Virus record (IMG/VR): IMGVR_UViG_3300027575_000001
Coordinates: 1-64,000 of that record
Source of the DNA: a virus
Strand: one strand, 5' to 3'
Length of the DNA: 64,000 bases
The notes beneath the pieces were generated by a model that searched no databases, had not been told where the DNA came from, and saw nothing but the letters and a program-made list of their open reading frames with translations. The translations under genes were made by a program, and so were the position numbers. Numbering within the stretch: the stretch's first letter is position 1; the number at the start of each line of letters is the position of its first letter. Positions 11,088-49,558 of this stretch are shown here, piece after piece.

Positions 11088-11297
11088 TTACCAGTCCTGC
11101 CATGGTGCTTCGCCGTCGACGACGAAGACAGTGCCCTCGATGTGCGCGTGTGCGAAAACCTTCTGTCTTCCGCCCATCCACTTATCAGTAGCTTTGTCGA
11201 TCTTCCCCTGCCACCACTTAGTGATCTTGCGGTTGTAGACGAGGACTTCACCTTTCGGCCCAAACGGAGGTTGCGCTCTCTGAATCTTGACAATCAT
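11088..11297 (-). CDS. hypothetical protein
   Basis: 69-aa ORF whose start abuts the exonuclease stop. Confidence 0.5.
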   Translation of the reverse strand: MIVKIQRAQPPFGPKGEVLVYNRKITKWWQGKIDKATDKWMGGRQKVFAHAHIEGTVFVVDGEAPWQDW

Positions 11298-18713: not shown

Positions 18714-18829
18714 AGAAGGTTTTATGTTGGGCGCTCTTGCCTGTCCTGCTGCCGACGGTGTTCCTCGCGGCATTTGTGATCTCGATCATTGAAGTAATCA
18801 GTATGAAAGAAATTGGGAGGCGACAGTGA
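18710..18829 (+). CDS. 39-aa membrane micro-protein (not in the ORF track)
   Basis: MKKVLCWALLPVLLPTVFLAAFVISIIEVISMKEIGRRQ, with ATGA and GTGA overlaps. Confidence 0.4.
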   Translation: MKKVLCWALLPVLLPTVFLAAFVISIIEVISMKEIGRRQ

Positions 18830-22912: not shown

Positions 22913-22918
22913 ACCCCC

Positions 22919-22928
22919 GTGTTACTCT
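22919..22928 (+). promoter_or_regulatory. late-gene decamer GTGTTACTCT (copy 1 of 6)
   Basis: Ends 6 nt before the GTG start of the tail-fibre gene. No SD sequence. Confidence 0.45.
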
Positions 22929-25900: not shown

Positions 25901-27530
25901 GTTCTCAAACAGCGGCGGCGGATCGGTGCCGGTAGTCTACGGCAACATCGACACCACGGGAAACAATGGGGGCGTCACCGCGATCTCCGGCTCATGCAAT
26001 GGAGTGATAAATATCGGGAACGCGATCTATGAGAATTGCGCCGTGCTTAGCGGCACCGGCACCGTCACGACCACCGGCTCACCGGCCAACCCGCAGCTTG
26101 CATGTTTCTCTGGTTCGACCTCAATCACCAATTGCGCGACTGCTTATGCGACAGTTGCTCAACTGCCGTCCTCCATATCTGCTGGGTCGCATCAATTTCT
26201 GACCAGTTACACGGCTTCGACGGAGACCTTCACGCAAGCGCAGCCGCTATGCGGAGACCTGTCTGCGAGCTCAACGACCGGCACAGCGTCATCGTCCACT
26301 TTTTGCCGAGGCGATGGACAATGGGCAACACCGAGCGGCGGGGGCACAACCACCAATGCTCTGACCATGAACAATGGCGGCTCTGGTGCTGCATCGGGCA
26401 CCACCTTCAACGGCAGCGCAGCCGTGACTGTCAGCTACAACACTCTAGGAGCAGGAGGTCTAGCAGCCTCTAATTCGTGGTCGGGCAACCAACTTTTTTC
26501 TGCCACTGTAACAATGGGACAATTGGGCATCGCAACGTCTGGAGGCAACTTCTCTTCCAATATTTTTTACTGGCAGGGCGACTATTGGAACGGCAGCGCC
26601 CCGGTGAACGATAACTGGTCCATGCAAAATGTGCTCGCTGCCACAGGAAGCAGCCCGACATCGACCCTTACCTTTGTCCATGGCGGAAGCAGTGGTATCG
26701 CGTCAGTGTCGATCCCCTACCCCACTGCGGTTGGAAACGGCTCAACTGCAACCACGCAGACGACTGGCGACAATACGACCAAGATCGCTACGGATGCCTT
26801 CGTGATCGCCAATGCAGGTGCCGGAGTAACCAGCGTTGCGCTGAGCAGCGCGACCGGAAATCTATTCAGCACCACGCCGGGAACCCCCGTTACCGCCTCT
26901 GGGACTCTCGATCCTGACGCTCAACTCAAGACGCAATCTGCGAACTGTGTTGTGGCCGGACCATCAAGCGGATCGGCGGCGGTTCCGACTTGCCGCACTC
27001 AGGTTACGGCCGATCTTCCCGTTGGCACCGTCGTATCGAGCACACCCGCAGTGGGGTCAAGCGACACGCTTAACTGCTCGACTGGCACCGGCGTGCAGAC
27101 CTTCGCTACTACGATCACGAGGCCAGCCTTCACGCAGGTAGCCGGTGCCATGTGGAAGTTAATTGTCACGTTGGCAATCACCACGAGCGGAACGCCCCCG
27201 ACGTTTCTTTTCGAGGTTGAAGATGGGAGCAATGTTGTCTATTCAACTGCCGCAGGAACTTTTACAGTCACGTCCGCCACCAACCTTGTATCTTCCGGGG
27301 AGATCAACCAGACAATAGCGGTCACGGGTTCATCGACGACTATGTATTCGGGTCTGACGGGTTTATTTCCCGGCGTGTCCAGCGCAGCGAATGTGCAAAA
27401 CCGGAGCCCGGTTCTGAGTAGCTTTAACTCGACAGCGTCCGCGACTGAATCTGTGCTTTTCCAATGCGGAACGGCTACGGGGGGCAATAGCGCGACTTTG
27501 ATTGATCTTGAGTACGTGAAGATTCGGTGA
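22935..27530 (+). CDS. tail fibre/tailspike-like depolymerase: signal-peptide-like N-terminus, SGNH/GDSL esterase and pectate-lyase-like beta-helix
   Basis: N-terminal MKRAICTAICLFILSCATFCAQ. SGNH blocks VCMPGDSTFFG, ESGINDWN and DGGLHPN. The motif WWGHCDGTTDDHAALGNAL is typical of the Pectate_lyase_3/tailspike N-cap. The C-terminal half is Gly/Ser/Thr-rich. Confidence 0.7.
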   Translation: MKRAICTAICLFILSCATFCAQTPTPIPVTGNLSSILGNGQAYAGVSIQLLNCPSPVSIPGYSVIVQQGYQVQANPSGVVNTTVWSNDLINCNGTQGNSEYQLSYVANGAVQGTPQCYQVVSTQTWNLNTQSPIACTGSAPNPYGVSQIIAGSGVTISPTTGKGNVVINLTGGGGMIYPGAGIPNSSGSSWLTSYGVNGSGNVVLTTSPTLVTPTANTYNATTGYDINGTPFGTANLADWTNAGVVNGDCAVWNSGTSKWTPGSCGGSGTITLTGDVTGSGTGTIATSVVKVNGAAVPSSQGLVGTNGSGQIVAAGVPATNFKHWFTALGNTIAGISDTRVCMPGDSTFFGAYALPTAPSTSWATYGPDAQLANVFQSQYHILAQAASRFGSGSSVSISPSLLGDDPRFSVASQWTADTTTPVPGGYAMEATSAGDMAFTPVENIDTFTIHFLTGSGWGTFAAHIDGGSSTTQSTNGSPGIGTLVLTAGSVGVHTLHLTWSSGGVVKWWGAEGRDSTTHHVIFEQIGNSGATSANFSDTSNVWGAGESLPWSTLACDLVVQESGINDWNTSVPVATYKTNMQTTVTAQLAAGADVAEVSGNPSDTSQTGVTVATQLTYVTALQQVAAANSNAGLSTPLPFINNWQMFAGPVEAANYGYGYAQSFGQMAGIDGGLHPNLYGYYSSSVSIASGILTNPSTTNYQLQTFASNPYWKTGSSNVEVYFTDPPWWGHCDGTTDDHAALGNALYFYSSAFPSQTPGAFAVNLPYSYSSSQRTCLITGAVGVFGNNTLKGNGSIISYSGTGAALSVTGLQSSGSGQSIMRAKVQDLKVVLTAASGSVTGISATGNFQLDNVTVATNATPTSYTSLSVTDASAPPNGSVTNSSFDGPVSIDGSAGNGPDTQASLNFLNDKVGSGSTTMPSGNTSMVTVTNWRGGILNLNFPWMYNAWFPSSSTFFKITNTAATDFGSSAAININATPISDGGTPTLLTFSNSGGGSVPVVYGNIDTTGNNGGVTAISGSCNGVINIGNAIYENCAVLSGTGTVTTTGSPANPQLACFSGSTSITNCATAYATVAQLPSSISAGSHQFLTSYTASTETFTQAQPLCGDLSASSTTGTASSSTFCRGDGQWATPSGGGTTTNALTMNNGGSGAASGTTFNGSAAVTVSYNTLGAGGLAASNSWSGNQLFSATVTMGQLGIATSGGNFSSNIFYWQGDYWNGSAPVNDNWSMQNVLAATGSSPTSTLTFVHGGSSGIASVSIPYPTAVGNGSTATTQTTGDNTTKIATDAFVIANAGAGVTSVALSSATGNLFSTTPGTPVTASGTLDPDAQLKTQSANCVVAGPSSGSAAVPTCRTQVTADLPVGTVVSSTPAVGSSDTLNCSTGTGVQTFATTITRPAFTQVAGAMWKLIVTLAITTSGTPPTFLFEVEDGSNVVYSTAAGTFTVTSATNLVSSGEINQTIAVTGSSTTMYSGLTGLFPGVSSAANVQNRSPVLSSFNSTASATESVLFQCGTATGGNSATLIDLEYVKIR

Positions 27531-30409: not shown

Positions 30410-30444
30410 GGAAAGGAGGTCGCGGACAGCCGCCAGAGCAAGAG

Positions 30445-30474
30445 AACCAGTCCTTCGGGACTGGTTTTCTTTTG
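30445..30474 (+). terminator. rho-independent terminator after the endolysin
   Basis: AACCAGTCC-TTCG-GGACTGGTT followed by TTCTTTTG. Confidence 0.8.
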
Positions 30475-30486
30475 CTCGATCCGCAC

Positions 30487-30496
30487 GTGTTACTCT
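30487..30496 (+). promoter_or_regulatory. late-gene decamer GTGTTACTCT (copy 2 of 6)
   Basis: Immediately after the terminator and 24 nt before the ATG at 30521. Confidence 0.45.
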
Positions 30497-31563: not shown

Positions 31564-32034
31564 ATGAGATGGCTCTGGATCAGCCGCGAGCACCATCGGG
31601 AAGTCATCGCGGCCAAGGATGCTCTGATTGCCTCGCTCGAGGCGCAGAACGCCATCCTCGGCAAACGGCTGGCCGAGCCCGTCGCAATTACGGTGCAGAT
31701 GCCTGAAAATTTCGCCCTTCTCCAGCCAGCCATCGTGCGACGCAAGAAAGAGCCAGTCGCAGGAACCGAACCCGCCAAAGTTCCCGTTGAAGTCGATTGG
31801 GCGAACGTCGATCCCGATAATCCCTTCGTCATGGCGCAATTAGCAGCGCAAGAATATGGGCGCATGGTGAGTCCTATCGAACTCGCGGAATGGACCGCGC
31901 GCGTCCGACGCCAGATCAGAGCGGCCAAAGAACAGGGCATCAGGACACCGCAGATTCCCCAAGCTGGAACGCTTGAAACGAAGCCGGTCCCCCCCCACAT
32001 CACAGAGATGATTGAGAGAGCGGAGGCGGTGTAA
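31564..32034 (+). CDS. hypothetical protein
   Basis: ATG at 31564. The stop shares 1 nt with the next ATG. Confidence 0.5.
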   Translation: MRWLWISREHHREVIAAKDALIASLEAQNAILGKRLAEPVAITVQMPENFALLQPAIVRRKKEPVAGTEPAKVPVEVDWANVDPDNPFVMAQLAAQEYGRMVSPIELAEWTARVRRQIRAAKEQGIRTPQIPQAGTLETKPVPPHITEMIERAEAV

Positions 32035-34457
32035 TGGCGACGTCAGTAGCCCCACAGAGCGCGATGGAGCAACTGAACGCCAATGGTTCAGGCGCGAGTC
32101 CTGCGCAGAGCCAAGATGCCACTGCCGATGCCCCGCAGGAGCTTACCGGTGAGCAGGTAGCCGCCAAAGCGAAAATGGACGAGAAGTGCAAGGCTGCGCT
32201 CCTCGAAATCCGCAAGACCTTCAAGATGCGCTACCAGCCCAAGCGCATGAAGTTTGTCTCAGAAGCCACGCGGGCTTTCGAAGCCATCCGGGGAAGCACT
32301 TTTGCTCTACTCAACGATCAATCTGCGGCGCTCGACACGATCAATCAGCTCATGGCCGGTTTTCTCGGCCAGGGCGAAGACCCCGATCTTTACCAGCACA
32401 ACGACAACATCTACCAGACGTTCCTGATGATCTTCATCGCAGCACTGATGGTCGACCTCGGAAAGGTTCGTTACCAGCCAGCCGACGCGCAGGACGAGCA
32501 GGATCTGGAGATCGCGAATAAGGCTTCGACCATCCAGGCGTTCAACGAGCGCAAGAACAAGATCGCTTCCCTGCATCAGTTGAAGTTGCTTTACCTCTGG
32601 ATCTGCGGCTCATTCTTCCGGTATACCCGATATACCATCGACAAGAAAAAGTGGAAAACGTCGATGACGCCGCAGTATCAGACGAAGCCCGTCAAAGTGA
32701 CGCCCGACGGCTATATGTGCTCGAACTGCGGGAAGTTCACGCAGGACTCAGGAGCGAAGCCGTTCTCCTCCTCGTCCGCATGTCCGCAGTGCGGCGCAGG
32801 ACTCAGCCAAAGCGATTGGTACGAGGGCGACACGCTTGATCTTCCTGTCAAAGTGGGCGAGATCGAGACGGCGAACGGCGGAACGGGATTCACGATTTGC
32901 AACGGCCTGATGGTCGACGTCAACCCCGACGCCCTCGAGGATCCCATTGCCGACACCGAGATTCTGGATTACACGATCGAGCTCTCGGCAGCCAAAGTCA
33001 GGGCGGCTTATCCAGCGATGTACGCGCAGATCGCACCGACGGCCGGAGTGGATTCCTCGACAGACGGGGATATGGCGCAGGTAGGGCGCGCGCAGCAAAC
33101 GACGCCGGGCTCGAACGTCCGCGCCATCAGGACCGAGGGCGTAATTCCCTACTCACGCTGCTGGATTGACGTTGAGGCGTTCAACGAACTCGACGATCAA
33201 GACTTGGCGAAAGAGTTGGCGAAGCGCTACCCGGTTGGGTGCAAGTTAGTCCTGTGCGGCGAGGAAACCTTTCTCGATTGCGTTCCTGAAGCCAAAGAGG
33301 ATCACTGGACCTGGTGCGGCACGATCAAGGGCCTGGGCGCTTATCCGTTCGCCGCGGGCAAAGTCGTGCTGGACGTGCAGGAGCGCGTCACAAAGGCCGT
33401 CAACAAGATCGAAGCCTACATGGACCGCATCGCCTTTGGTATGGGCATTTACGACGCGGACTACATCGACGGCAACGCCCTGCAGAACAAGATTGCGACT
33501 CCCGGCAACCTGACGGGCGTCAGCAGGACCGACGAGGAAACGGGGCAACACGTCCCGTTGGAAGATCTGTTCTACCACGCGGCTTTTCAGGCTGACCCAG
33601 AAATCTACAAATACCCAGACACCCTGACGACGCGGGCGCAGTTCCTGTGCGGCGTGATGCCCCAGGTATTTGGAGGATCGGACAAGAACGTCCAGACGGC
33701 GGAAGGGCAGGAACAGGCTCTCAATACAGCTCTCGGGCGGCTCAAGCAATACATCGACCAGATGCGCGGCGAGGACGCGGACGCTGCACAACTTTCGGTG
33801 CAGTGCTCCATTGAGAACATGGACGAGGAAATCAAGATCGTCGAAGAGGGTGAAATGCCGGGCTCGTGGAAGACGATCAGGATGCTTAAGGCGGAACTCT
33901 CAGGCGATTTCTTCACCTATCCAGAGTCCGACGAGGGCTTCCCGGCTACCTATTCCGAGATTCAGCAACGGCTGATGCAACTGCTGGCGCAGAACCAAAA
34001 GATGCCGATTGTGGCGCAGATGCTCGCCGATCCGAAGATTCAGCGGGTGATGGCGCAATATCTCTTGCCGCCGCAGATTAAGCTGCCGCTCGATGCGCAG
34101 TTGTCGAAGATCGAGAAGATCATTCATCGGCTGTCGCAGGACCCCAATGGTCCCGTTGCGCACCCGAATCCTGGCGGACCGAACCTGCCGCCCATCGTGG
34201 TCCCATCGATCACGCCAGAGCCGAATGTGGATGATCCTGCCGTTTGCCAGAGCGAGGCAAAACAATGGCTCTTGGCGAACTTTGAGCAGGCTGAAACCAA
34301 TCCCAAAGGGTATGGGAACGTGCTGGCTTATCTGACCGTGAGCGCGCAGTTGGCGAAGCAGCAACAGGCCGCGGCGGCTCTTACGATGCAGGCTCAGGCG
34401 CAGGCAGGAGCGAAGTCTGGGGCGGGATCGGGTCAGCCGGGACAGCCGGGAAGCTAA
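32034..34457 (+). CDS. putative portal protein
   Basis: 807 aa, immediately upstream of the scaffold-like and capsid-like genes. The assignment is positional and by size only. Contains an unusual CSNCG...CPQCG Zn-ribbon insert. Confidence 0.5.
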   Translation: MATSVAPQSAMEQLNANGSGASPAQSQDATADAPQELTGEQVAAKAKMDEKCKAALLEIRKTFKMRYQPKRMKFVSEATRAFEAIRGSTFALLNDQSAALDTINQLMAGFLGQGEDPDLYQHNDNIYQTFLMIFIAALMVDLGKVRYQPADAQDEQDLEIANKASTIQAFNERKNKIASLHQLKLLYLWICGSFFRYTRYTIDKKKWKTSMTPQYQTKPVKVTPDGYMCSNCGKFTQDSGAKPFSSSSACPQCGAGLSQSDWYEGDTLDLPVKVGEIETANGGTGFTICNGLMVDVNPDALEDPIADTEILDYTIELSAAKVRAAYPAMYAQIAPTAGVDSSTDGDMAQVGRAQQTTPGSNVRAIRTEGVIPYSRCWIDVEAFNELDDQDLAKELAKRYPVGCKLVLCGEETFLDCVPEAKEDHWTWCGTIKGLGAYPFAAGKVVLDVQERVTKAVNKIEAYMDRIAFGMGIYDADYIDGNALQNKIATPGNLTGVSRTDEETGQHVPLEDLFYHAAFQADPEIYKYPDTLTTRAQFLCGVMPQVFGGSDKNVQTAEGQEQALNTALGRLKQYIDQMRGEDADAAQLSVQCSIENMDEEIKIVEEGEMPGSWKTIRMLKAELSGDFFTYPESDEGFPATYSEIQQRLMQLLAQNQKMPIVAQMLADPKIQRVMAQYLLPPQIKLPLDAQLSKIEKIIHRLSQDPNGPVAHPNPGGPNLPPIVVPSITPEPNVDDPAVCQSEAKQWLLANFEQAETNPKGYGNVLAYLTVSAQLAKQQQAAAALTMQAQAQAGAKSGAGSGQPGQPGS

Positions 34458-35463
34458 TCTCGACCTGATTGAACATCGGCGCTTCGTTGCCGATCCGCTT
34501 TCGTGCGAGTTCGGCATACGCAGGATTCAACTCAATCCCTACAAAGTCACGGTGATAGCGCAAGGCGACCGCTCCGGTTGTGCCTGATCCGCAAAACGGA
34601 TCTAGCACAGTGTCGCCTTCTTTGCTGCCGGCGAGGATGCACGGCTCGACCAGTTTTTCGGGGAAAGTGGCGAAGTGTGCCTCGGCATAGGGCTGCGTGG
34701 CGATCTCCCACACGCTGCGCTTGTTGCGGTGAGTCACAGGAAGGCAAACCGCGCTCGTGAACGATGGGTTGTTTTTGTTGCCCGATCCGATAGCTGCGGC
34801 TTTCCGCCGGACCGCCTTCATGTTGCCATTCGTTTTGCCGCCGGCATGGGCAGGCTCGGAGCCGATCTGGTGAATCAAGTCCTGCGAGAGACACGGGTTT
34901 GTGTTCGGACTGCACAGTTCGAGAATTGCCTCCATGTCGCAGTAATACCGCGCGCTCTTGGTCAGCAGGAACAGGTACTCATGCGCCTTGGTGCAGCGGT
35001 CGGTCACACTTTCGGGCATCGGGTTTGGCTTGCTCCAGATGATGTCCTGCCGAAGATACCAGCCGTCGGCGCGCAGGGCAAACGCCAGCATCCACGGGAT
35101 GCCTACGAGGTCTTTTTCCTTCAGACCACATCCATCTGGAATTTTAAGCATCCGAGATTGATTGCCCTCCATATGCAGCAGCTCTCTGTTTCCGCCACCA
35201 GGCGTTCCGCCGTTTCGCGCGTAGCAATCCCCCATATTCAGCCACAGCGTGCCGTCATTGCGCAGCACCCGCCGCACCTCGCGGAACACTTCGACCATTC
35301 GCGCAATGTACTCCTCCGGCGTCTTTTCGAGGCCAAGCTGGCCAGCGGTTCCATAGTCTCTCAGGCCCCAATATGGCGGGCTCGTTACCACGCACTGCAC
35401 GGATTCATCGGGCAGGTCACGCAACCAGTCGAGCACGTCACCGACCAAAATGGTCGCTTTCAT
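34381..35463 (-). CDS. beta-class DNA methyltransferase (N6-adenine or N4-cytosine, PF01555-type)
   Basis: Motif IV VVTSPPYWGLRDYG is N-terminal and motif I VLDPFCGSGTTG is C-terminal. Antisense to the late operon. The 3' end overlaps the portal gene by 77 nt. Confidence 0.85.
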   Translation of the reverse strand: MKATILVGDVLDWLRDLPDESVQCVVTSPPYWGLRDYGTAGQLGLEKTPEEYIARMVEVFREVRRVLRNDGTLWLNMGDCYARNGGTPGGGNRELLHMEGNQSRMLKIPDGCGLKEKDLVGIPWMLAFALRADGWYLRQDIIWSKPNPMPESVTDRCTKAHEYLFLLTKSARYYCDMEAILELCSPNTNPCLSQDLIHQIGSEPAHAGGKTNGNMKAVRRKAAAIGSGNKNNPSFTSAVCLPVTHRNKRSVWEIATQPYAEAHFATFPEKLVEPCILAGSKEGDTVLDPFCGSGTTGAVALRYHRDFVGIELNPAYAELARKRIGNEAPMFNQVEISFPAVPADPIPPQTSLLPAPEPAS

Positions 35464-35538
35464 ATTCTCACCATTGGTGCAGTATAGCCCCGCGCGTCGG
35501 AAAGCGCAACAGGACTTTCAAAATGATCGTGCTACTCT
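35460..35538. repeat. bidirectional promoter/leader cassette, copy A
   Basis: The 29-mer TCATATTCTCACCATTGGTGCAGTATAGC is identical to 43056-43084. It is followed by CAGGACT...AAA...GTGCTACTCT in the same order as copy B. Confidence 0.8.
35529..35538 (+). promoter_or_regulatory. late-gene decamer GTGCTACTCT (copy 3 of 6)
   Basis: Ends 10 nt before the ATG at 35549. No SD sequence. Confidence 0.45.
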
Positions 35539-35548
35539 TCTCAACGTC

Positions 35549-37042
35549 ATGGCTACTCCAGTTATTCCCGCCGCCGCTCCCGCCAGTGCCCCGGCCCCAG
35601 TTGCCGCCGCAACGCCGTCACCGTCTCCGAGTCCTGCCGCCGCGGCGACTCCCGTAACTCCTACGCCCACGCCGTCAACTCCAGCCGCTCCAGCGGAGAT
35701 GGATCATGACCAGCGTGTAGCCGCTATGGTTGCGGCTGAGAAGGCCGCCGAGAAGCCAGCGATACCGGCCGCCGAGCCTGTCAAGGCCGAGGAACCGGTT
35801 AAGGCCGAACCTGCTGCTGAGAATAAAGAAGAGCCAGCCGCTGCGACCGCGACCGAAGATGGCGATGAGCCATTCTCGATGGCCGACGAGTCATTCTCTG
35901 GCGCGCGCGATCTCGCCGCAGAACTCGATGCTGTCGCAGGACTCTCAGGACTCCTGCCCAAGGAGACCCGCGACAAGATCATGGCGAACGCCCGGATTGC
36001 TGAACGCCTGGCGCCGTACCAAGAGCTTTTTGCTTCCCCAGAAGAGGCCAAGGTAATTTCCGAGACGGCCAACGAACATGCCGGGTTCGCCGAAGCGTTC
36101 AGTGCCATCGGCCGCGACATCGAAAAGGGCACGAACGCCTTTGTTGCGAAGCTGATTGAGGGATCGGCCCTGCGGGACGCCGACGGCAACGTCCGCAAGG
36201 ACGCAGATGGCAACATCCTCACCGACGGCACCGCCGGCAGATTTTTCAACACGATTGGCGCTCGCCACATCAATCTGGCGATCCAAAAGAAGGTAGAAGC
36301 ACTGAAAGACGAGAACGTGACAGCAGCTTGGGATCTGGTCATGGAGAGTGTAGGTTTGCGGCCCTCCACCGCGGCTCAAGACCAATCGCAGGACCCTGTT
36401 CTCACGGCTCGTAAAGCGGAACTCGACGCGCAGGAAGCGAGAATTCGCACCGAGCGCCAAACCCAACAGACGGAAGCGTACAAAGCTCATCAGTCAGCGG
36501 TCGATACCGAGACAACCTCCTCGTTCGAAAGCTCTCTGGAAAGCGTGATTGCGCTCGCCACAGCCCTATCGCCGCTCGAACGGAGCGCCGTGAAGGCCAA
36601 CATTGAGAGAGAGTTTGCATCCGCTCTCAAGCGCGGCGATCCAAGGTCAGTTGCCTATTACCGGGAACTCGATCGCATCCGTCAATCGCCCATCAGCGCG
36701 GCAAGGCAGCAGAAGGAAGTGGCTCTCGCAAAGAGGTTCACGCGGGAGAAACTGACGACGATTGCCCGGCCATTCTTCAAAGAAGCTGGTGTGGTTGTGG
36801 GCCAAAAAGCCGAGGAACGCGCCGCAGCACAGGCCGCACGAGCGGAAGCCGCTCGCAGCGAGGTAAGTGGAGGCAGGGCAGCCACGCCGACTGCCGCAGG
36901 AACCGGAGACGCAGCGCAGCAGGAAGCGCGCGCAGTCGAAGCGTTCAAGGCGGCAAATGGTGGTCGGGCTCCTGCGGATGACCACGAGAAGCGCATTGGG
37001 ATGATGCTTGCCCAGGCGAAAGCTCGCGGGATCGCAGCCTAA
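35549..37042 (+). CDS. putative scaffolding protein
   Basis: Ala/Glu/Pro-rich and largely helical-looking, 497 aa, between the portal-like and capsid-like genes. Confidence 0.5.
   Translation: MATPVIPAAAPASAPAPVAAATPSPSPSPAAAATPVTPTPTPSTPAAPAEMDHDQRVAAMVAAEKAAEKPAIPAAEPVKAEEPVKAEPAAENKEEPAAATATEDGDEPFSMADESFSGARDLAAELDAVAGLSGLLPKETRDKIMANARIAERLAPYQELFASPEEAKVISETANEHAGFAEAFSAIGRDIEKGTNAFVAKLIEGSALRDADGNVRKDADGNILTDGTAGRFFNTIGARHINLAIQKKVEALKDENVTAAWDLVMESVGLRPSTAAQDQSQDPVLTARKAELDAQEARIRTERQTQQTEAYKAHQSAVDTETTSSFESSLESVIALATALSPLERSAVKANIEREFASALKRGDPRSVAYYRELDRIRQSPISAARQQKEVALAKRFTREKLTTIARPFFKEAGVVVGQKAEERAAAQAARAEAARSEVSGGRAATPTAAGTGDAAQQEARAVEAFKAANGGRAPADDHEKRIGMMLAQAKARGIAA
35937..35953 (+). 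repeat. tandem pair of the abundant octamer (CAGGACTC-T-CAGGACTC)
   Basis: Read directly. Encodes AGLSGL in the scaffold-like gene. Confidence 0.9.
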
Positions 37043-37116
37043 CTTATCTCGCATTGCGTACTCCAGAACTGACGGTCAACGCCGAGTACAGGACTCGGAG
37101 AAGCGAGTTGTGAGTC

Positions 37117-38394
37117 ATGGCGGCTCTTCAAGCAGCAGTTGGAGCGGCATCAGTTATGTTGGAGGGCGTTTGGAATCAGCCTCAGTTGCTGGTGGAGAAA
37201 GACGCCCCCCTCGCAAAGCTCATGGGATCTGGCGGCAACGCCACGAAGGTCTCGGAGCACACCTACCGCGTCACCTTCCAAAATGCACTGCCTGGCGTTC
37301 GTTCAGCGGTGTATCTGGACGGCAACGCCAACTTCCCGTCCCCCGGCTCCCCGGCGTGGCAGGAAGGCTTCATGCAGCCTGTCTCGTGGGCTGTCTCTGT
37401 CGGCTGGACCCAACTGGCAGCTCTCACCACTGCGAGCGACACGTTGGCCGTGGCGAACGTGGTTGACAAGACCATGACGGACGCAGTGAGCCAAGTGAAG
37501 CTGACCCAGGATGAGTCGCTCTGCAACGGCGATGGAACCGGCTACTGGGCGACGATCAACTCCGTGACACTCGGCGCAGGCGGAAGCTATACCCTGAGTT
37601 CGACCGACTTTGGCGCCCGGACGTTCGGTGTCGGCAACAACATCGACATCTACAACGGGACCACCTACGTCAACACGTCCAACGTGACCGCGGTTCAGGA
37701 CGCCCTCGGCGGTGCGCAGATCCTCACCGTAGATAACGCCTACGGCGCGGCCAACGACGTAATCCGGTTTGGCGGTCTGGTTTCCGGTTCTCCCCAATTC
37801 GTTTATGGGCTGTCGTACTGGAACAACAACAGTCCTACCGGACTGACCATCGGCATCGACAGGACCCAAGCGGCAAACAACTTCATCCTGAGTCCGGGCG
37901 TGGCAGCCGGTGGCTCCTCGCTGACTCCTCCGCTCTTCCGTCTTGGTTTGGACCAGATCATCCAGGCCATCGGTGAAGCAGCGGTGACCAGCGGAAAGTT
38001 CAAGATGCAGATGCACATGGGCCAGAAGGCGGTCTATGAGCAGAGCGGCCTGTCGCTGACCAACTTCTATCGCACGGACAACACGGTCGGCGCAGGATTC
38101 GACATGCTGACCACGGGCGACATGAAGGCGGCTGGCAACCCGTTCCTCATCAACCTGCACGCGAACATGAGCCGCGTGGACTTCATCTACGGTGAGACGT
38201 GGCACTCGATCAAGTGGGGCGATTCTCCGTTCTGGTTCAACGACCAGGGGCGGACGATCTTCACGCAGACCGGAACCAACGGATTGCCGACGGCGACGTT
38301 CGCGAGTTTTATGATAGATACCCGTCAATTTTTCTGCGCAAATCCCAAGACACAGTGCTACATCAGCGGTCTGCCCGAGCCGACAGGCTACTAA
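37117..38394 (+). CDS. putative major capsid protein
   Basis: 425 aa, follows the scaffold-like gene. GGAGAAG RBS. Size and position fit an HK97-fold MCP, but no diagnostic motif was checked. Confidence 0.55.
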   Translation: MAALQAAVGAASVMLEGVWNQPQLLVEKDAPLAKLMGSGGNATKVSEHTYRVTFQNALPGVRSAVYLDGNANFPSPGSPAWQEGFMQPVSWAVSVGWTQLAALTTASDTLAVANVVDKTMTDAVSQVKLTQDESLCNGDGTGYWATINSVTLGAGGSYTLSSTDFGARTFGVGNNIDIYNGTTYVNTSNVTAVQDALGGAQILTVDNAYGAANDVIRFGGLVSGSPQFVYGLSYWNNNSPTGLTIGIDRTQAANNFILSPGVAAGGSSLTPPLFRLGLDQIIQAIGEAAVTSGKFKMQMHMGQKAVYEQSGLSLTNFYRTDNTVGAGFDMLTTGDMKAAGNPFLINLHANMSRVDFIYGETWHSIKWGDSPFWFNDQGRTIFTQTGTNGLPTATFASFMIDTRQFFCANPKTQCYISGLPEPTGY

Positions 38395-38466
38395 GAGCAA
38401 TGGCTTTACGGGGAGGCCTCCGAGTCTCCCCCAAAAGTCAACAACCCAAGTTCAAGGAGAGTCATC

Positions 38467-39360
38467 ATGAAGTCGTTCAGTATCAACAAAACGGTGAGGT
38501 CGCTTACCGTCTCTCTTCTGGGGCTGCTCTTTGCGGTCCTGTCGCCCACAATCTTTGCTCAAATTCCCAACCCCGTCCCACCGGGCCAAGTCGGCGGCTT
38601 CGACGGCTACGGGAATCAATACCCAATCTTCGGGAAACAGTATTTTCAGACCGGCTCGATCAGCACCCCAGCCAACTGTCTGGCTGTCGGAAATCCCGTC
38701 GTTACGATTTCGATCGCCAGTCCAGGCGTGATTACCGCGGCCAACACCTGCGCGGCCGGGCAGGCCATCGTCTTCCAGACCACCAGCGCACTGCCCACGG
38801 GGCTGACTGCCGGGACACTCTACTACGTGATCTCGACAGGACTCTCAGCTACAGGCTTTGAGGTTTCAACGACCGTTGGCGGTTCAGCGGTGAATACCTC
38901 CGGTTCGCAGAGCGGCACTCAATCAGCTTTTGCCACGTACACGAATGCAACCACATCGTTTACTTCGGCCATCACGCTGCCTCCAGTGCCTCCTGGGTTT
39001 GCTGTTCCCGGTCATTGCGTCCTGCCGTACACGTCAACTAACGCCTCGGGAACCATTGAATTGGGCGCCAGCGTGTCGAATATCAACTCGACCCTGCAGG
39101 TGACCAATTCGGCGCACACAGGCTCGGGCGGGGCAACTCTCGCGGACGTGACTACGACCGTAAACACCACAACTGCAACCGCTATTTCGAGCACCATTGG
39201 CGGTGGCACGGCAGGGAATATCTACGGGGATTACGTCTCATTCATCCTGTACACGCCGACCACGATCACGGTCCCGACAACGGTGCAAATCTGGGCCGAG
39301 TCGAGCTCGACGTCGTATACGCAGTCGCTTCAGGGCGCTTATTGCGTGCTCGGCAACTAA
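38467..39360 (+). CDS. protein with a Sec-type signal-peptide-like N-terminus (virion-module gene)
   Basis: MKSFSINKTVRSLTVSLLGLLFAVLSPTIFAQIPNPVPPG. The rest is Thr/Ser/Gly-rich. Confidence 0.6.
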   Translation: MKSFSINKTVRSLTVSLLGLLFAVLSPTIFAQIPNPVPPGQVGGFDGYGNQYPIFGKQYFQTGSISTPANCLAVGNPVVTISIASPGVITAANTCAAGQAIVFQTTSALPTGLTAGTLYYVISTGLSATGFEVSTTVGGSAVNTSGSQSGTQSAFATYTNATTSFTSAITLPPVPPGFAVPGHCVLPYTSTNASGTIELGASVSNINSTLQVTNSAHTGSGGATLADVTTTVNTTTATAISSTIGGGTAGNIYGDYVSFILYTPTTITVPTTVQIWAESSSTSYTQSLQGAYCVLGN

Positions 39361-40175
39361 GTTTCCTACGAAGGGATGCTCAGTGGCAGGATGCTGGTTC
39401 AGGTCCTGCCATTTCCGCGTTTGGTAGAATCAGGTTCGTGCCCAGCCACAAAGAACTCGACAGCTACTCAGGCCCTGAGAACGAGGAGACCAACGAGTAC
39501 CTGCGAACGCGCCACGGCGAATCCTATCTCGGCTATCCGATGTTCCGGTTGGTCCACTCGGCTTTCCTATGGCAATTCTCTGCCGGCGAGTGGTTCGATT
39601 GGGATCCCAGCCTGCCGATCAACGACCGTGGGACCCTCGTGGCTGACGAGACCGGCAAGAGCCTGGCACCGAATACTCGAGCTGAGCGCGTCGTCACCGA
39701 GATGCGCCGCCGGCACAAATACGCCGAATTCGTCCCATTCCCCGGCTGGATACTCGAGCGCTGGATGCCGCCAAGTTATTTTGGAACGCCAAACTGGTGG
39801 AACAGCCAGATTGTGCCGGGAACGAGTTTGCCTAAACTTGGGCCATATCCGTACCGGGGCGGCTATGTTTCGGTAATGGGTGAGGGATTCAGGCCATATC
39901 CCGAAGCGCCCACGGGACCTTTCCTTGATCGCCTAATTGAAATGTGGAACATCATGCAAGCGGAAACCCTGTCGATGACGCCAGAAACGTACATCCTCAA
40001 GCGTGAGCGCGAGAGCCGCGAAGAGCAGGAAGCAATCGACGAACGCTGGCGCCGGGAATCATCGGCCGCGAATATGACCGCCATGCAGCCGCTGTTCTCG
40101 ACGTATCTGGAGGCTGGACGTGCACGGGCATTGGCCGCGGAGCACGCAGGACTCACAAGCCACTACGGCAACTAA
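39342..40175 (+). CDS. hypothetical virion-module protein
   Basis: 277-aa ORF with an uncertain TTG start (a GTG at 39438 is possible). Confidence 0.5.
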   Translation: MRARQLSFLRRDAQWQDAGSGPAISAFGRIRFVPSHKELDSYSGPENEETNEYLRTRHGESYLGYPMFRLVHSAFLWQFSAGEWFDWDPSLPINDRGTLVADETGKSLAPNTRAERVVTEMRRRHKYAEFVPFPGWILERWMPPSYFGTPNWWNSQIVPGTSLPKLGPYPYRGGYVSVMGEGFRPYPEAPTGPFLDRLIEMWNIMQAETLSMTPETYILKRERESREEQEAIDERWRRESSAANMTAMQPLFSTYLEAGRARALAAEHAGLTSHYGN

Positions 40176-40196
40176 CCCGCTTCAAAAGGAGGATTT

Positions 40197-41438
40197 ATGC
40201 CAAAGGAAACGACACCTGGAGGCTACGGGACAGCTATACAGGACACGCCGCCAACGGTTCAACAAGAACGTGCACTAGCCGGCAGGATGGGGGGTCCTGC
40301 CATCGGGGCGAATGTGGACGTCACCGTCGTTACGCCGCAGGGCCTGCGCGAGACTGTGAATCTGCCGACTATCGATCACAAGGCAATGGGCCGCAAGACG
40401 GACCCGGCATTTGAGCGCAGCGCGCAGAGCGTGAAAGGCAGGATTCGCCAACTCGGCACCGTGCCGGCCGCAGTGGTCAGTTTCCTGCCAATCGAACTGA
40501 GAAGCGATTCCTACCTCTTCCCGTTGAAAGTCGCGTGCATCATGCCGCCAAAAGGCAAAGATCCCTACGCGATCTACGTGTTCCAAAGCTACTTCATCGA
40601 TTACACGAAACAGCACGTGGACAGCCCCACAACCGCCTTCGAATGGGCTCCGATTCAGATGGCGATGGAGTTCCCTGGCACCAATCCACGGGGCGTCTTC
40701 GTCTTCTCGGTCCCCGTAGGACCCGCAAACGAATCCACTGATGATCTACATCGCCGTGTCGCCTCTCTGATCGAAGATCCCACGTGGAAAGCGACAGTCA
40801 GCCGCGAGGCTCAGCACGTCGGCATGACCTACGGCGAGGCTCTTGAGGCTAAACGCCTGAGCGCTATCGCGTGGATGGATGAGCAGTTGAGCCGCGGCAA
40901 CACCATGGACTTGAGCGAGAAAGCGTGGGAACGGCCTGGGCTGCCACAGAAAGCTGCTGCGCGCCGACTACACGCACTCGGCAGGATTCAGGAACTCCCG
41001 AAATGGGTTGAGCAGCAACGGGACCTGACCCACAAGCCCAAGGACTGCCCGAACTGCGCAAAGCGTTGTGAGCCAGGCGCCATCTCCTGTTCGAATCCCG
41101 GCTGCAAGGTGAGGGGCGGCGGTCCCTACATCCTCGACCCGCGCAAAGCCTTCGAGAACAATATCATCAACGAAGAGGATGAGTCTCTGGAACGTCTATC
41201 TCGACGGGAACTAAAAGACATGGGCATCTCCGATTACGTGGCCGAGAGCGTGGAAGAGAAGAAAGCTCGTTTGACCGAAGGCGGCATCAAACCCAAGAGC
41301 TTGGCTGCGCTCCGGGTGATGGAAGCCGAGGACATGTCGAGGTCGCTCGACGCCGAGCGTGTGGGCAAGAGCATCGCGACGGCAGTAGCCGATGGCGCGA
41401 AAGGCAAAAAGACAGAGAGGGCCTCCGCAGAAGTGTAA
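40197..41438 (+). CDS. hypothetical virion-module protein with a Zn-ribbon (CPNCAKRC...CSNPGC)
   Basis: 413-aa ORF with an AAGGAGGA RBS. Confidence 0.6.
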   Translation: MPKETTPGGYGTAIQDTPPTVQQERALAGRMGGPAIGANVDVTVVTPQGLRETVNLPTIDHKAMGRKTDPAFERSAQSVKGRIRQLGTVPAAVVSFLPIELRSDSYLFPLKVACIMPPKGKDPYAIYVFQSYFIDYTKQHVDSPTTAFEWAPIQMAMEFPGTNPRGVFVFSVPVGPANESTDDLHRRVASLIEDPTWKATVSREAQHVGMTYGEALEAKRLSAIAWMDEQLSRGNTMDLSEKAWERPGLPQKAAARRLHALGRIQELPKWVEQQRDLTHKPKDCPNCAKRCEPGAISCSNPGCKVRGGGPYILDPRKAFENNIINEEDESLERLSRRELKDMGISDYVAESVEEKKARLTEGGIKPKSLAALRVMEAEDMSRSLDAERVGKSIATAVADGAKGKKTERASAEV

Positions 41439-41448
41439 GCGCCGCGCG

Positions 41449-41458
41449 GTGCTACTCT
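41449..41458 (+). promoter_or_regulatory. late-gene decamer GTGCTACTCT (copy 4 of 6)
   Basis: Ends 6 nt before the ATG at 41465. No SD sequence. Confidence 0.45.
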
Positions 41459-41464
41459 CTTCCC

Positions 41465-42190
41465 ATGGCGGTTCTCACTGTAGCTCAGATCGTGAAGCGC
41501 GTCGGAGTCCTGCTGGATGACCCGGCGAACATCCGGTTCTCGTCGGCGTACATCATGCCGTACCTGGATCAGGAGAACGAGTCTTTTGAGATCACCCTCG
41601 AAAGGCTCGGGATCCAGCAGCAGGAACAAATTGCTATCATCAATCTACCGGCCGCTACACAAACACAAGACGGCAGTTGTCCTCCGGTAGACCTGGCTCC
41701 CCTCTTTGCTGCTGGGCAACCCCTTCAATGGTTCCTGCGGCCGAAGCGGATCGACTGGAAACTCCAAGGTCAGCCCGATACCTCTTACCAGCAGTCTGAT
41801 CCTGTCAACGAACTCGACGACGTGCAGTACGGCAACTTGGGGCCATGGCAATATCGCTGGGCGCAAGGGTCGATCCAGTTGAGTGCCAACTACACGGCAG
41901 TGACCATCCGGGTCTATTTCTGGGCGCTTGCCAGCGACATCTACGACAATGCGCAGATGGTGATGCGTGGGATCGGGTTCATCCTAGCCACGCAGGTTGC
42001 AACTCTCATCTGCGCGACCAACAACAACATGGGGAAGTTGGCAGCCAAGCTCGAAAAGAACTTGGCGCGGGACAAGCAAAACTTGTCGAATCTGATGGTG
42101 ATGACTGCGCAGGCGCAACTCATCCACTTCCGCGGGACTCGGAGATTCGGTGTCGCCCCGATCTCAGCCGGCGGAAAGCCGTATTCCTAA
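41465..42190 (+). CDS. hypothetical virion protein, possible head-tail adaptor
   Basis: 241 aa. The N-terminal MAVLTVAQIVKRVGVLLDDPANIRFSSAYIMPYLDQ pattern resembles adaptor/connector proteins. Weak call. Confidence 0.4.
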   Translation: MAVLTVAQIVKRVGVLLDDPANIRFSSAYIMPYLDQENESFEITLERLGIQQQEQIAIINLPAATQTQDGSCPPVDLAPLFAAGQPLQWFLRPKRIDWKLQGQPDTSYQQSDPVNELDDVQYGNLGPWQYRWAQGSIQLSANYTAVTIRVYFWALASDIYDNAQMVMRGIGFILATQVATLICATNNNMGKLAAKLEKNLARDKQNLSNLMVMTAQAQLIHFRGTRRFGVAPISAGGKPYS

Positions 42191-42198
42191 GTCCTGTG

Positions 42199-43059
42199 TC
42201 AGTCTTCTTCATCTTTCAGGTCTGGTGAATCGATCATCGCCGCCTCAAGCACTTTGATCTGCTTTTCGATTTCAACCTTCAAATCCTCGGTCTTGCTGAG
42301 ATTGTATTTGGCGGTATCCAGAATTCTCTTGAGGGGGGTGTCTCCATCAAGCAACAATTTGACGATGCCCCCGACCTTTTCTGGCTTATTCCATCCATGC
42401 CGAATTTGCAGTCCAGACGCATCATCGAATGCCTTTACTGATGTTTCAAGGTTTTTGTATTCTTTTTCCCAATAATCTGAGCCGCTTCGATTGCATCCTT
42501 GCTTATAGCCTTCGTCTCTCGCGACCGTGAGCGCGGCACTGTCCAGTTTATCTTGGCGGCGCTGGATTGCATAAGCTATCGCCGTGAGGAACGTGAGGCT
42601 CATCGGCATCGGGTCGAGTTTGGGGCACGGCACAACACATTTGAGTCGATTCTTCTGCGCCACGTACATTCCCCACGTTGCCGGGAGTTCGCCCGCCTTA
42701 ACGATGCTCTCTGATGGAACAACCAGCGCCCAGTAGTTGCAGTAGCGCATGATGGATTCAGCCTTTTCCGGCTGCTTCAGTTCCTTTAGCCAGTCGTTGC
42801 GAGAGACTTTCATCTCGAATCCCCACACAGCTTTGCCCCTGCTCCGATAAAGGCTGATCGCAAGGGCATCCGCTGTTCGCACGCCATCAAATCCAGTGGC
42901 ATCGCGCACTTCCTCCAAAGTAATGTAGGCCGGGGCAGAGAAAGTTCCTTGGAGACGCAAGAACAGATCATGGGCAGCTAGCTTCGTTCCCGCTTGCAAT
43001 TCCTCATCGGCTACCGTCTCGGTGCCAACTAGTTCTTCGTAGGCTAATTCATCGCTCAT
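42199..43059 (-). CDS. MmcB-like PD-(D/E)xK nuclease-fold protein with a C-terminal coiled coil (antisense moron)
   Basis: Start at the ATG at 43059 (MSDELAYEE). RTADALAISLY...VWGFEMKVSRNDWLKELKQPEK...YCNYWALVVP matches the D...ExK...C-x-y-f-x-x-V-P pattern of DUF1052/MmcB. Confidence 0.5.
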   Translation of the reverse strand: MSDELAYEELVGTETVADEELQAGTKLAAHDLFLRLQGTFSAPAYITLEEVRDATGFDGVRTADALAISLYRSRGKAVWGFEMKVSRNDWLKELKQPEKAESIMRYCNYWALVVPSESIVKAGELPATWGMYVAQKNRLKCVVPCPKLDPMPMSLTFLTAIAYAIQRRQDKLDSAALTVARDEGYKQGCNRSGSDYWEKEYKNLETSVKAFDDASGLQIRHGWNKPEKVGGIVKLLLDGDTPLKRILDTAKYNLSKTEDLKVEIEKQIKVLEAAMIDSPDLKDEED

Positions 43060-43127
43060 ATTCTCACCATTGGTGCAGTATAGCGTGGATTCCCCAGCAG
43101 GACTCAAAGAATTTGGCGTGCTACTCT
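43056..43127. repeat. bidirectional promoter/leader cassette, copy B
   Basis: See copy A. Contains a full CAGGACTC at 43098 and GTGCTACTCT at 43118. Confidence 0.8.
43118..43127 (+). promoter_or_regulatory. late-gene decamer GTGCTACTCT (copy 5 of 6)
   Basis: 70 nt upstream of the ATG at 43198, which has a GAGGAG RBS. Confidence 0.4.
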
Positions 43128-43197: not shown

Positions 43198-44451
43198 ATG
43201 AGTCTTGCATTGACCACCCAAACTGCCCATCACAGGCTTCGCACCAAACAGCTTTACATCAACGCTCAGGCGGCCGGTTCATACACGCCCGGCGGCGACA
43301 CGGTGAATTTCAACAGCCTCTCCGGCGGGGGTGCTGCGCCAGCGGACAATACCATCGGCTATCCCGGCAACATCAAGGACTTCGCCGTCATCAGCGCGCC
43401 CCCTGGATTTTCGGCCAATCTCGTCAAGGGATCGGGCCTAACCAATTGGGGTCTGCAGGTCTTCGAGAGCGCCGCGGCTGAACCGGACGGTGTTCCCCTC
43501 GGCCTGGGAACGCTATCTGCTGCGGCCACGCAGTCGACCTATACCGTTGGTGGCTTGGTCACCGTTGCGACGACCACTCCTCCGCCTCTCGGATCCTTCA
43601 TTGTCCTGTCGAACGGAACCTCTGGCGCTGGCATCTTCTTGGACGGCGTGATGGTCCAGGTGACGGCCGTTGTCCCAGGTGTCTCCTACAGCTTCAACTT
43701 CGGGCAGGGTTCGGCTCTGCACTACACAGTTGCCACTGACACCTTGAAGTACCAGGTGGTGCAGGCATCGGTTACCAATCTTTTGCAGGCGGTGGTGTTA
43801 GGGGCACCGATCACCGGTGTTCTCGCAACCGCGAATCTGTTGACGATCACGCAGGCCAATTCGCTAGTCGCTGGTCAGTTCGTGATCCTCAATGGCGTCT
43901 TCAAGACAGCCAGCGTCTATGCCTCCGGCGCCATCGTCCAAGTTGCCTCAGCAAGCGCGACCGGATGGACGGCAAACTGGCAGGGGACGATCATCAATCA
44001 GACTTCGGCTGAGGTCGCAACAGCTTCCTTGCTCGTCACGAACGGGGGCGCACCGATTGCCGCGTATCCCTACGCTGCCGGACCGACGGCCTTGATCACC
44101 AACTCGCTCGCTGTAGCTGCTGATGCCACCCACGCGGGCCTCTTGACCCTGACGGCCGCTCAGGCCTATCAGCCCGGCATGCTGATCGTGGCTGAAAACG
44201 TCGGCGCCAACACCCAGCTCGATGGCACTATCGCCACGGTAATCGCATCTGGGTTGACCCAGGCGATCATCAAGGCAAACGGTTGGGGCGCAATCGCCAA
44301 CACTTCGGCTGAGACAGCGGGCTACGCTTCTATCCTCGTCACTGGCGGCGCATCAAGCTCGACAGGCGAACTGCCGGCAGGACCCTATCCTGCGGGCGCT
44401 TTGGCTGCTCCGTTTGTCATCATGGTCGAAGGACCCAAAGGCCAGATCTAA
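43198..44451 (+). CDS. hypothetical virion protein
   Basis: Second ATG chosen because of the GAGGAG RBS. Ala/Gly/Thr-rich, 417 aa. Confidence 0.6.
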   Translation: MSLALTTQTAHHRLRTKQLYINAQAAGSYTPGGDTVNFNSLSGGGAAPADNTIGYPGNIKDFAVISAPPGFSANLVKGSGLTNWGLQVFESAAAEPDGVPLGLGTLSAAATQSTYTVGGLVTVATTTPPPLGSFIVLSNGTSGAGIFLDGVMVQVTAVVPGVSYSFNFGQGSALHYTVATDTLKYQVVQASVTNLLQAVVLGAPITGVLATANLLTITQANSLVAGQFVILNGVFKTASVYASGAIVQVASASATGWTANWQGTIINQTSAEVATASLLVTNGGAPIAAYPYAAGPTALITNSLAVAADATHAGLLTLTAAQAYQPGMLIVAENVGANTQLDGTIATVIASGLTQAIIKANGWGAIANTSAETAGYASILVTGGASSSTGELPAGPYPAGALAAPFVIMVEGPKGQI

Positions 44452-49544: not shown

Positions 49545-49548
49545 CCCC

Positions 49549-49558
49549 GTGCTACTCT
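49549..49558 (+). promoter_or_regulatory. late-gene decamer GTGCTACTCT (copy 6 of 6)
   Basis: Ends 10 nt before the ATG at 49569. No SD sequence. Confidence 0.45.

Follow-up and report, generated by a model that had tools for sequence, protein, structure and literature searches.

The first 64,000 nucleotides (nt) of the IMG/VR virus record IMGVR_UViG_3300027575_000001, hereafter the window, carry two genes that run backward through a block of structural genes and begin with the same short sequence. One encodes an orphan beta-class DNA methyltransferase and lies at junction 1, between a portal-like gene and a scaffold-like gene; the other encodes an MmcB-like nuclease-fold protein and lies at junction 2, between genes for proteins of 241 and 417 amino acids (Table 1). 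At 1-14 kb of the window genes occupy the minus strand, those for DnaB and an SMC-like ATPase among them, and from ~14.5 kb they occupy the plus strand, where they include genes for a portal-like protein of 807 amino acids, a capsid-like protein of 425 and a giant protein of 3896. The first-pass annotation had singled out the methyltransferase and nuclease genes as the only two on the minus strand in the late region. Three small minus-strand open reading frames (ORFs), at 28471, 30377 and 31239, are not credible as genes: each either faces an overlapping plus-strand ORF that relatives conserve or is less plausible than a plus-strand ORF for a membrane protein. The claim therefore holds from ~22.9 kb onward.

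Two antisense genes begin with the same 29 nucleotides

The 28-mer GCTATACTGCACCAATGGTGAGAATATG occurs exactly twice in the window, both times on the minus strand, at 35461-35488 and 43057-43084, and 100 dinucleotide-preserving shuffles returned no match to it even with up to three mismatches. The exact repeat extends to 29 nt by taking in one further base beyond the ATG, reading ...AATATGA, and it includes the shared leader, start codon and TATACT -10-like hexamer that had caught the eye at first pass. Nowhere else in the 64 kb did we find a third copy of the surrounding cassette, even with two mismatches allowed in its core. Chance resemblance or an assembly artefact was also considered, and the CAGGACT heptamer upstream of both copies could by itself recur by chance, at about one per kb. 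The empty shuffles speak against coincidence, as do orthologous cassettes in two relatives (loci L009 and L038, below), and the same gene arrangement in four independent assemblies speaks against an artefact; we regard this account as refuted.

Table 1. Positions of the two antisense genes, their cassettes and the promoter-like boxes in the window
Feature	Position	Strand	Details
Orphan beta-class N6/N4 DNA methyltransferase, 360 amino acids	34381..35463	-	PF01555, phrog_67
29-mer, copy 1	35460..35488	-	GCTATACTGCACCAATGGTGAGAATATGA on the gene strand; TATACT 35481-35486, GGTGA Shine-Dalgarno-like box, ATG 35463-35461
Upstream part of the junction-1 cassette	35504..35516	-	AGTCCTG (CAGGACT on the plus strand, 35510-35516), then TTGCGC 35504-35509
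Box CGTGCTACTCT at junction 1	35528..35538	+	Serves the scaffold-like gene, ATG at 35549
AGTCCTG, 3' boundary of the nuclease insert	42190..42196	+	Abuts the stop codon of the 241-amino-acid gene; inverted copy of the 43098-43104 box
MmcB-like PD-(D/E)xK nuclease-fold protein with long helical C-terminal half, 286 amino acids	42199..43059	-	PHROG matches, fold, conserved residues
29-mer, copy 2	43056..43084	-	TATACT 43077-43082, ATG 43059-43057
CAGGACT box of cassette 2	43098..43104	+	AGTCCT on the gene strand, with TATACT 17 nt downstream; 12 nt separate it from the plus-strand box
Box CGTGCTACTCT at junction 2	43117..43127	+	Serves the 417-amino-acid gene, 43198-44451
All copies of box CGTGCTACTCT	2968-2978(-), 3604-3614(-), 22918-22928, 30486-30496, 35528-35538, 41448-41458, 43117-43127, 49548-49558		Search with up to one mismatch

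Both genes lie between neighbours that adjoin in most relatives

To place the two genes in their lineage, we mapped by tblastn the genes of 12 IMG/VR loci whose portal is 66-95% identical to that of the window. Most of these relatives have neither gene. Junction 1 lacks a methyltransferase in L003, L004, L005 and L012, and in the last three of these the portal stop codon is followed by ~12-20 nt, the motif CGTG(C/G)TACTCT, eight further nucleotides and the ATG of the scaffold-like gene. The window-type methyltransferase recurs at this junction in L002 and L044, and L009 carries there a 200-amino-acid adenine methyltransferase resembling TIGR01712. Junction 2 has no insert in L003, L005, L007, L012, L040 or L041. 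In L005 and L041 the stop codon of the 241-amino-acid gene is followed directly by GATGCTACTCT or AATGCTACTCT, a (G/A)ATGCTACTCT block that leads into the leader of the next gene. A nuclease gene at junction 2 was found only in the window and in L038, a 2-kb contig on which the protein is 84% identical and the antisense layout the same. The relatives that carry a cassette (L002, L009, L038 and L044) are all short contigs, none spanning both junctions.

Each insert is placed exactly between the upstream stop codon and the next TGCTACTCT promoter-like box. Both genes are lineage-specific insertions that separate neighbours adjacent in most relatives, which supports the accessory status first proposed for them. 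Further lineage-specific inserts occupy sites of this kind. In L001 a different minus-strand gene follows the portal (6713-6821), its C-terminus HNH-like by eye, and in L003 a 227-amino-acid plus-strand ORF (10940-11623) stands directly upstream of the TGCTACTCT box of the 241-amino-acid gene; these two support an insertion hotspot upstream of promoter boxes. L007 likewise has a 207-amino-acid plus-strand ORF between its portal and scaffold genes (9353-9976).

Inverted copies of CAGGACT flank the nuclease insert, and L038 shows the same bracket (1493-1499). No CAGGACT copy lies on the left side of the methyltransferase insert, and the bracket around the nuclease may be a product of chance, given about one such motif per kb.

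A methyltransferase and an MmcB-like nuclease-fold protein

The junction-1 protein matches PF01555 over residues 22-321 (E = 4.2e-50; 171 bits against a cut-off of 26.7) and phrog_67 at 1e-78. With SPPY near its N-terminus and FCGSGTTG near its C-terminus it belongs to the beta class, as the first-pass annotation had it. Its best sequence matches in the PDB are 2zie, CcrM and N4-cytosine methyltransferases. Against the CcrM equivalog model NF050803 it reached 112.7 bits, where the cut-off is 830, and GANTC sites are not unusual in number in the window (291 observed against a summed Markov expectation of ~320). More than 8000 homologues were retrieved at E < 1e-60, and the close ones on long contigs belong to other phages. 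The ORF overlaps the 3' end of the portal-like gene (32034-34457, opposite strand) by 77 nt (34381-34457), likewise in L002, and its last ~24 residues are probably a read-through tail made by the insertion.

For the junction-2 protein, both the program-made ORF and the ENA gene call begin further upstream; 37 homologues align from the ATG at 43059. The protein matches phrog_14517 at 2e-40 and phrog_5429, annotated 'DNA repair protein', at 5e-23. It has no Pfam match at E <= 1, the MmcB-like family PF06319 included, and one of 38 homologues touches PF06319 (E = 0.04). An AlphaFold2 model with a mean predicted local distance difference test (pLDDT) score of 85.6 shows an alpha/beta N-terminal domain followed by long helices over residues 156-277. 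Foldseek placed this model closest, among PDB entries, to 3dnx (E = 8e-9, probability 1.0, TM 0.63 to the target), an entry that we take to represent PF06319. Restriction and repair nucleases follow at much weaker scores, the second-best match overall being the Type IIS enzyme PaqCI (E = 1e-3), and the best viral fold matches, in BFVD, include several named 'DNA repair protein MmcB-like'.

In the 38 aligned family members, D65 and E83-x-K85 show no or almost no variation, and these conserved D...ExK catalytic residues make the nuclease probably active. By modelled fold and conserved residues the protein would therefore count as MmcB-like, and the fold match to 3dnx and D65/E83/K85 bear out its earlier label as an MmcB-like PD-(D/E)xK nuclease, to which the helices at 156-277 add a helical tail. 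In Caulobacter, MmcB is a PD-(D/E)XK endonuclease that is induced by the SOS response and needed for tolerance of mitomycin C and cisplatin (PMC9578287). Our first search gathered 114 proteins of the window's nuclease family, which is present in 82 cultured-phage records, mostly actinophages and all below 60% identity, and in 65 loci of genomes from many phyla. In four other phage contexts the homologues are co-directional with their neighbours, among genes for DnaB/primase, HNH, HTH and small early-type proteins. The sequences upstream of these other phages' homologues gave no donor of the cassette: they are unrelated to it, and the genes start by an ATGA overlap with the preceding gene.

A promoter-like box of the phage backbone

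The box CGTGCTACTCT, of the form TGnTAnnnT, has eight copies in the window at up to one mismatch, where 0.68 are expected, and all eight are intergenic and point toward the gene that follows. In form the box resembles an extended -10 element for leaderless or near-leaderless mRNAs. Four of the eight TGCTACTCT boxes lie only 6-10 nt before the start codon, a spacing that suggests leaderless mRNAs at those genes. Relatives without inserts have the box at the same junctions, and it therefore belongs to the phage backbone. This changes how the shared region is divided. What had been described as a rightward GTGCTACTCT element of the minus-strand cassette is instead this recurrent box upstream of plus-strand genes. 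The similarity that was said to continue for 70-80 bp is present (AGAGTAGCACG ... AGTCCTG ... 29-mer), but it is patchy, and its distal third is the backbone promoter of the plus-strand neighbours. We also considered CAGGACT as the -35 element of that plus-strand promoter; the spacing of 16-17 nt fits, but insert-free promoter boxes have no such motif, and the candidate was rejected.

Anatomy of the minus-strand cassette

Four cassettes can be aligned, namely those of the window and L009 at junction 1 and those of the window and L038 at junction 2. Their conserved blocks are AGAGTA(G/C)CACG, which is the reverse complement of CGTG(C/G)TACTCT; ATT..GTCCTG; and TAnA(C/G)TG..(C/T)AC..TGGTGA(G/C)AATATGA. 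Only the third is specific to the minus-strand genes, and it consists of the TAnAnT -10-like hexamer, kept in all four cassettes, 6-7 nt, and (A/C)TGGTGA(G/C)AATATGA. From the CAGGACY box to ATGA the cassette measures ~45-57 nt and runs through CAGGACY, TAnAnT, a very short GGTGA leader and AATATGA.

The two junctions differ upstream of the hexamer. At junction 1, TTGCGC precedes TAnAnT by 17 nt and looks like a -35 element; the AGTCCTG-TTGCGC part (Table 1) is also kept in the L009 orthologue. At junction 2 the cassettes are shorter by 8 nt, with AGTCCT in the position that TTGCGC takes at junction 1. GGTGA can pair with ...UCACC... of the 16S rRNA tail, and classic sites of the AGGAG type before some genes of the window make it plausible that GGTGA serves the host as a Shine-Dalgarno box. 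Rfam returned no match anywhere in the window.

It is unlikely that the 29-mer is a shared control site in addition to a promoter and ribosome-binding site, whether as an operator palindrome overlapping the predicted start site, as a hairpin that hides GGTGA, or as a leaderless mini-ORF. The perfect 11-bp palindrome CACCAATGGTG is present in both window copies, and the corresponding place in L038 is taken by another, TGTCAC-N5-GTGACA, but L009 has none. RNAalifold finds a 4-bp stem kept in 4 of 4 cassettes, yet at 4 bp and -2.6 kcal/mol it is small and shows no compensatory change, and the 5' arm of the hairpin would lie outside the RNA if transcription starts ~7 nt after TATACT. The spacing TAnAnT-N6-ATG mirrors that of the plus-strand promoter boxes to their start codons, and in all four cassettes the conserved stretch extends to the final A of ATGA; both points favour a control site. 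No regulator gene was identified. As for the mini-ORF, it comprises four codons, ATG GTG AGA ATA TGA, with its stop codon overlapping the real ATG, and the idea is weakened by L038, where the start is CTG and not ATG.

Reuse of the cassette and its mosaic identity

The cassette precedes different cargo in different relatives. In L009 it reads AGAGTAcCACG..GGTCCTGTTGCGCTTTCgGA..TAAAGTGTACTAATGGTGAGAATATGAAAGC and stands before the 200-amino-acid TIGR01712-like methyltransferase; in L038 it stands before the 84%-identical nuclease. Between the window and L009, identity runs 8 nt into the ORF (ATGAAAGC) and then gives way to unrelated methyltransferase genes, a single case of this kind.

Compared block by block, the two cassettes of the window agree at 11/11 positions in the promoter box, 4/12 in the first spacer, 7/7 in the CAGGACT box, 6/21 in the spacer adjoining the 29-mer (where they differ by 8 nt in length) and 29/29 in the 29-mer. 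The corresponding values are 24/29 for the 29-mer and 16/21 for the adjoining spacer between the window and L009, and 23/30 and 4/13 between the window and L038. These mosaic block identities mark the two cassette types as old paralogues. The last 29 nt appear to have been homogenised within the genome, which suggests recent copying, gene conversion or very strong common selection.

Searches of public collections added no cassette to these four. A cassette 23-mer had no match in IMG/VR, and the gapped pattern GTCCTG-N8-38-AATGGTGAGAATATG matched only the L009 contig there; in metagenomes it gave 16 matches, all unrelated by context. Locus L020, taken up as a further cassette, turned out to be an unrelated overlap of stop and start codons.

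The mosaic pattern bears on a second account, which we consider possible but unlikely. The cassette could be mainly a recombination module, similar to the promoter-early stem-loop (PeSL) elements of T4-like phages, and the 29-nt identity could be the footprint of a recent exchange and not of regulatory selection. The cargo of junction 1 has been replaced between the cassette and the portal stop codon, with window/L009 identity ending after ATGAAAGC, and the block identities have the mosaic form that exchange would leave, but there are only two copies per genome and 29 nt is short for homologous recombination. The clustering of insertion sites directly upstream of repeated promoter boxes likewise fits, and T4-like phages offer a precedent of the same anatomy, with promoter, stem-loop, Shine-Dalgarno box and start codon (PMC2839356); the cassette examined here, however, stands on the 5' side only. 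With such one-sided cassettes, simple exchange between cassettes cannot by itself excise or insert a gene.

A probable reading: accessory genes behind a reusable expression cassette

We favour the reading that these are two accessory genes inserted backward into the structural block, each behind a reusable expression cassette and with exchangeable cargo, and we think it probably correct. On this proposal, the phage lineage accepts accessory genes in gaps directly upstream of TGCTACTCT boxes, and the antisense inserts of one sub-lineage would be served by a small reusable expression cassette. The cassette would define a slot whose cargo can be exchanged; junction 1 holds a beta-class methyltransferase here and the TIGR01712-like adenine methyltransferase in a relative. 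The second copy would serve the gene of a nuclease that other phages normally encode in their early or replication modules.

In molecular terms, the cassette would supply a promoter for the host RNA polymerase together with a ribosome-binding site. Both enzymes would then be made independently of the structural operon and most likely before it, a timing that we infer from the position of the nuclease homologues among early-type genes elsewhere. Convergent late transcription would subsequently damp both genes. The two would be co-regulated but work independently, the methyltransferase presumably protecting phage DNA against host restriction and the nuclease acting in the replication, repair or recombination of phage DNA. 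The first-pass annotation had deduced duplication and co-regulation from identical regulatory cassettes; what stands is a shared, duplicated start cassette whose -10-like hexamer makes co-regulation a reasonable inference, whereas the whole 70-80 bp does not hold up as one duplicated promoter cassette.

Several points weigh against this proposal. Cassette 2 has no recognisable -35 element, and a scan with the sigma-70 consensus called neither cassette as a promoter. Neither gene is followed by a convincing terminator, as terminator-like matches did not exceed the shuffled expectation. The 29/29 identity could reflect selection for the site of a shared regulator and not gene conversion, and the conservation of the cassette is drawn from four sequences, two in the window and two more in all the collections searched.

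A closer partnership between the two enzymes had also been suggested. They would form a split restriction-modification-like or exclusion pair, in which the nuclease cuts unmethylated host or competitor DNA, the co-regulated methyltransferase protects, and the identical cassettes keep the two in balance. We consider this quite improbable. The genes do share an identical start cassette, and the conserved D...ExK residues suggest an active nuclease, but in L009 the same cassette is followed at junction 1 by a methyltransferase of another family, probably of other specificity. Two of the 4 phage contexts examined place an N6_N4 methyltransferase within 1-2 kb of their nuclease homologue; across the wider sample, however, just 4 of 69 nuclease-homologue loci have one of the beta class inside a distance of 4 kb, and the nuclease family is spread over early and replication modules of phages and prophages of many phyla. 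The match to PaqCI, a Type IIS restriction enzyme, is second to folds of MmcB-type repair nucleases, and the protein has no evident DNA-recognition domain, its C-terminal half being helical. The rare linkage, the early-module homologues and the swapped methyltransferase family together tell against a dispersed pair.

Very improbable, in our judgement, is a more elaborate variant, in which the 29-mer is the operator and start of a circuit that couples methyltransferase and nuclease into a split, self-protecting system for host-DNA degradation or exclusion, housed in exchangeable slots, with the CAGGACY boxes taking part in slot exchange.

If the proposal of accessory genes behind a reusable cassette is true, the window offers a small, clean case, outside the T4-like phages, of accessory genes held in fixed slots behind such a cassette. 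Such a case would be of use for annotating the genomes of uncultured phages and for predicting sites of anti-restriction cargo, and the cassette would be a compact, portable promoter and ribosome-binding unit. It reveals no new mechanism of defence or counter-defence. For understanding this phage lineage, the TGCTACTCT box and the CAGGACTC octamer, described below, are at least as useful.

An over-represented octamer

The CAGGACT of the cassettes is a copy of an octamer, CAGGACTC, that is over-represented throughout the genome. The window has 45 copies of it, where shuffles predict 2.7 and a first-order Markov model ~1.4 + 1.0, an excess of ~17-fold, and it is the commonest 8-mer of the plus strand (for example at 1919, 3615, 9672, 32797, 35937/35946, 43098 and 62767). 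Extended, the consensus reads (C/G)(G/A)CAGGACTC with any base but C after it. The copies divide 33 to 12 between plus and minus strands (binomial p = 0.0025), a bias that persists among the minus-strand genes of 1-14 kb, and they occur in several reading frames. In all the relatives the octamer is abundant, with a weaker bias (~62 : 40). It could be a Chi-like or otherwise polar signal at the DNA level. Through its GACTC (GANTC) core it was also considered as a target of the methyltransferase; GANTC is not unusual in number and the motif is present in methyltransferase-free relatives as well, and this candidate was dropped. Outside CAGGACTC, GACTC and GAGTC stand at roughly half to two-thirds of expectation.

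Source and wider genome

The nuclease sequence is present on ENA ERZ28655118 scaffold_15, a metagenome contig of 68,352 nt, and on three similar contigs. Searches of 50,697 GenBank phage records with a 10.5-kb region (megablast) and with the capsid protein (tblastn) returned no match, none of 185,579 species genomes (GTDB) holds a related capsid gene, and no integrase or repressor domain appeared among the ~37 window ORFs scanned for domains. A metagenomic source, no match in a genome and no integrase or repressor domain amount to no evidence of a prophage, and the earlier idea that the pair is expressed from one finds no support.

Other genes of the window were characterised in passing. The 3896-amino-acid ORF (51684-63374, plus strand) contains a Strawberry-notch-like helicase, with AAA_34 and Helicase_C_4, at residues ~1950-2555 and a 2'-5' RNA ligase-like domain at residues 813-932; it presumably resembles the giant 'polyvalent' virion proteins of phages. 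A 571-amino-acid protein (18826-20541, plus strand) has an ATPase domain of the HerA/DUF87 type and is a possible packaging ATPase; none of the ORFs scanned showed a classical terminase domain. A protein of 1531 amino acids (22935-27530, plus strand) has a weak GDSL lipase/acylhydrolase-like segment (E = 1e-5, under the Pfam cut-off). At 30440-30496 the hairpin ccagtcc-ttcg-ggactgg, which with its trailing T-run closely resembles an intrinsic terminator, stands directly upstream of a GTGTTACTCT box, in what looks like a terminator-promoter pair within the plus-strand block. CTAG is strongly depleted across the window, with 47 occurrences against 118 expected.

Comparison with known systems

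Each component has counterparts elsewhere. The nuclease-fold protein appears from its model to share the fold of MmcB and 3dnx over its N-terminal ~150 residues, conserved D...ExK included; it differs in falling outside the Pfam MmcB-like model, in an extra helical C-terminal half of ~130 residues and in being phage-borne. The methyltransferase is like the orphan beta-class (PF01555) methyltransferases of phages in domain, in size, in the order of SPPY before FxGxG and in having no adjoining cognate nuclease, and its expected role, evasion of host restriction, is the same, whereas an antisense placement between portal and scaffold genes is unusual. Type II restriction-modification systems likewise combine a methyltransferase and a PD-(D/E)xK-fold nuclease in one genome, and the two may be co-regulated here as well; the genes of the window, however, are 6.7 kb apart, 4 of 69 loci show linkage, the methyltransferase family at the slot is interchangeable and nothing points to sequence-specific recognition.

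The classic moron (the Hendrix/Juhala concept) is expressed from a repressed prophage and usually has a terminator. Both genes are morons in a loose sense. They resemble that type as extra genes between neighbours adjacent in relatives, each with a putative promoter of its own, in the late region; they differ in that lysogeny is not in evidence, no clear terminator follows them, and their cargo consists of enzymes of DNA metabolism and not of host-fitness factors.

Of known systems, the PeSL cassettes of T4-like phages come closest. In these an early promoter is joined to a stem-loop, a Shine-Dalgarno box and a start codon in a repeated unit that mediates the replacement of accessory ORFs (Arbiol et al. 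2010, PMC2839356; Comeau et al. 2014, PMC4122927). The window, from a lineage unrelated to the T4-like phages, has two copies in 64 kb where PeSLs number dozens in hyperplastic regions; its cassettes stand on the 5' side only, whereas PeSLs flank shuffled ORFs on both sides; its genes run antisense within a structural block; and its cassettes have neither a strong sigma-70 consensus nor a strong terminator stem-loop. The cassette therefore cannot be filed as a PeSL, but it would appear to work alike. In both, a short repeated block with promoter-like, Shine-Dalgarno and start-codon elements precedes a non-essential gene; for the small stem-loop that PeSLs have near the -10 element or start site, the cassettes here offer a weak 4-bp stem without covariation. 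In both, the block is associated with the insertion, deletion and replacement of accessory ORFs between close relatives, and the window and L009 provide one case of cargo replaced with the breakpoint at the cassette. As in PeSLs, the accessory genes would be expressed on their own, separately from their virion neighbours.

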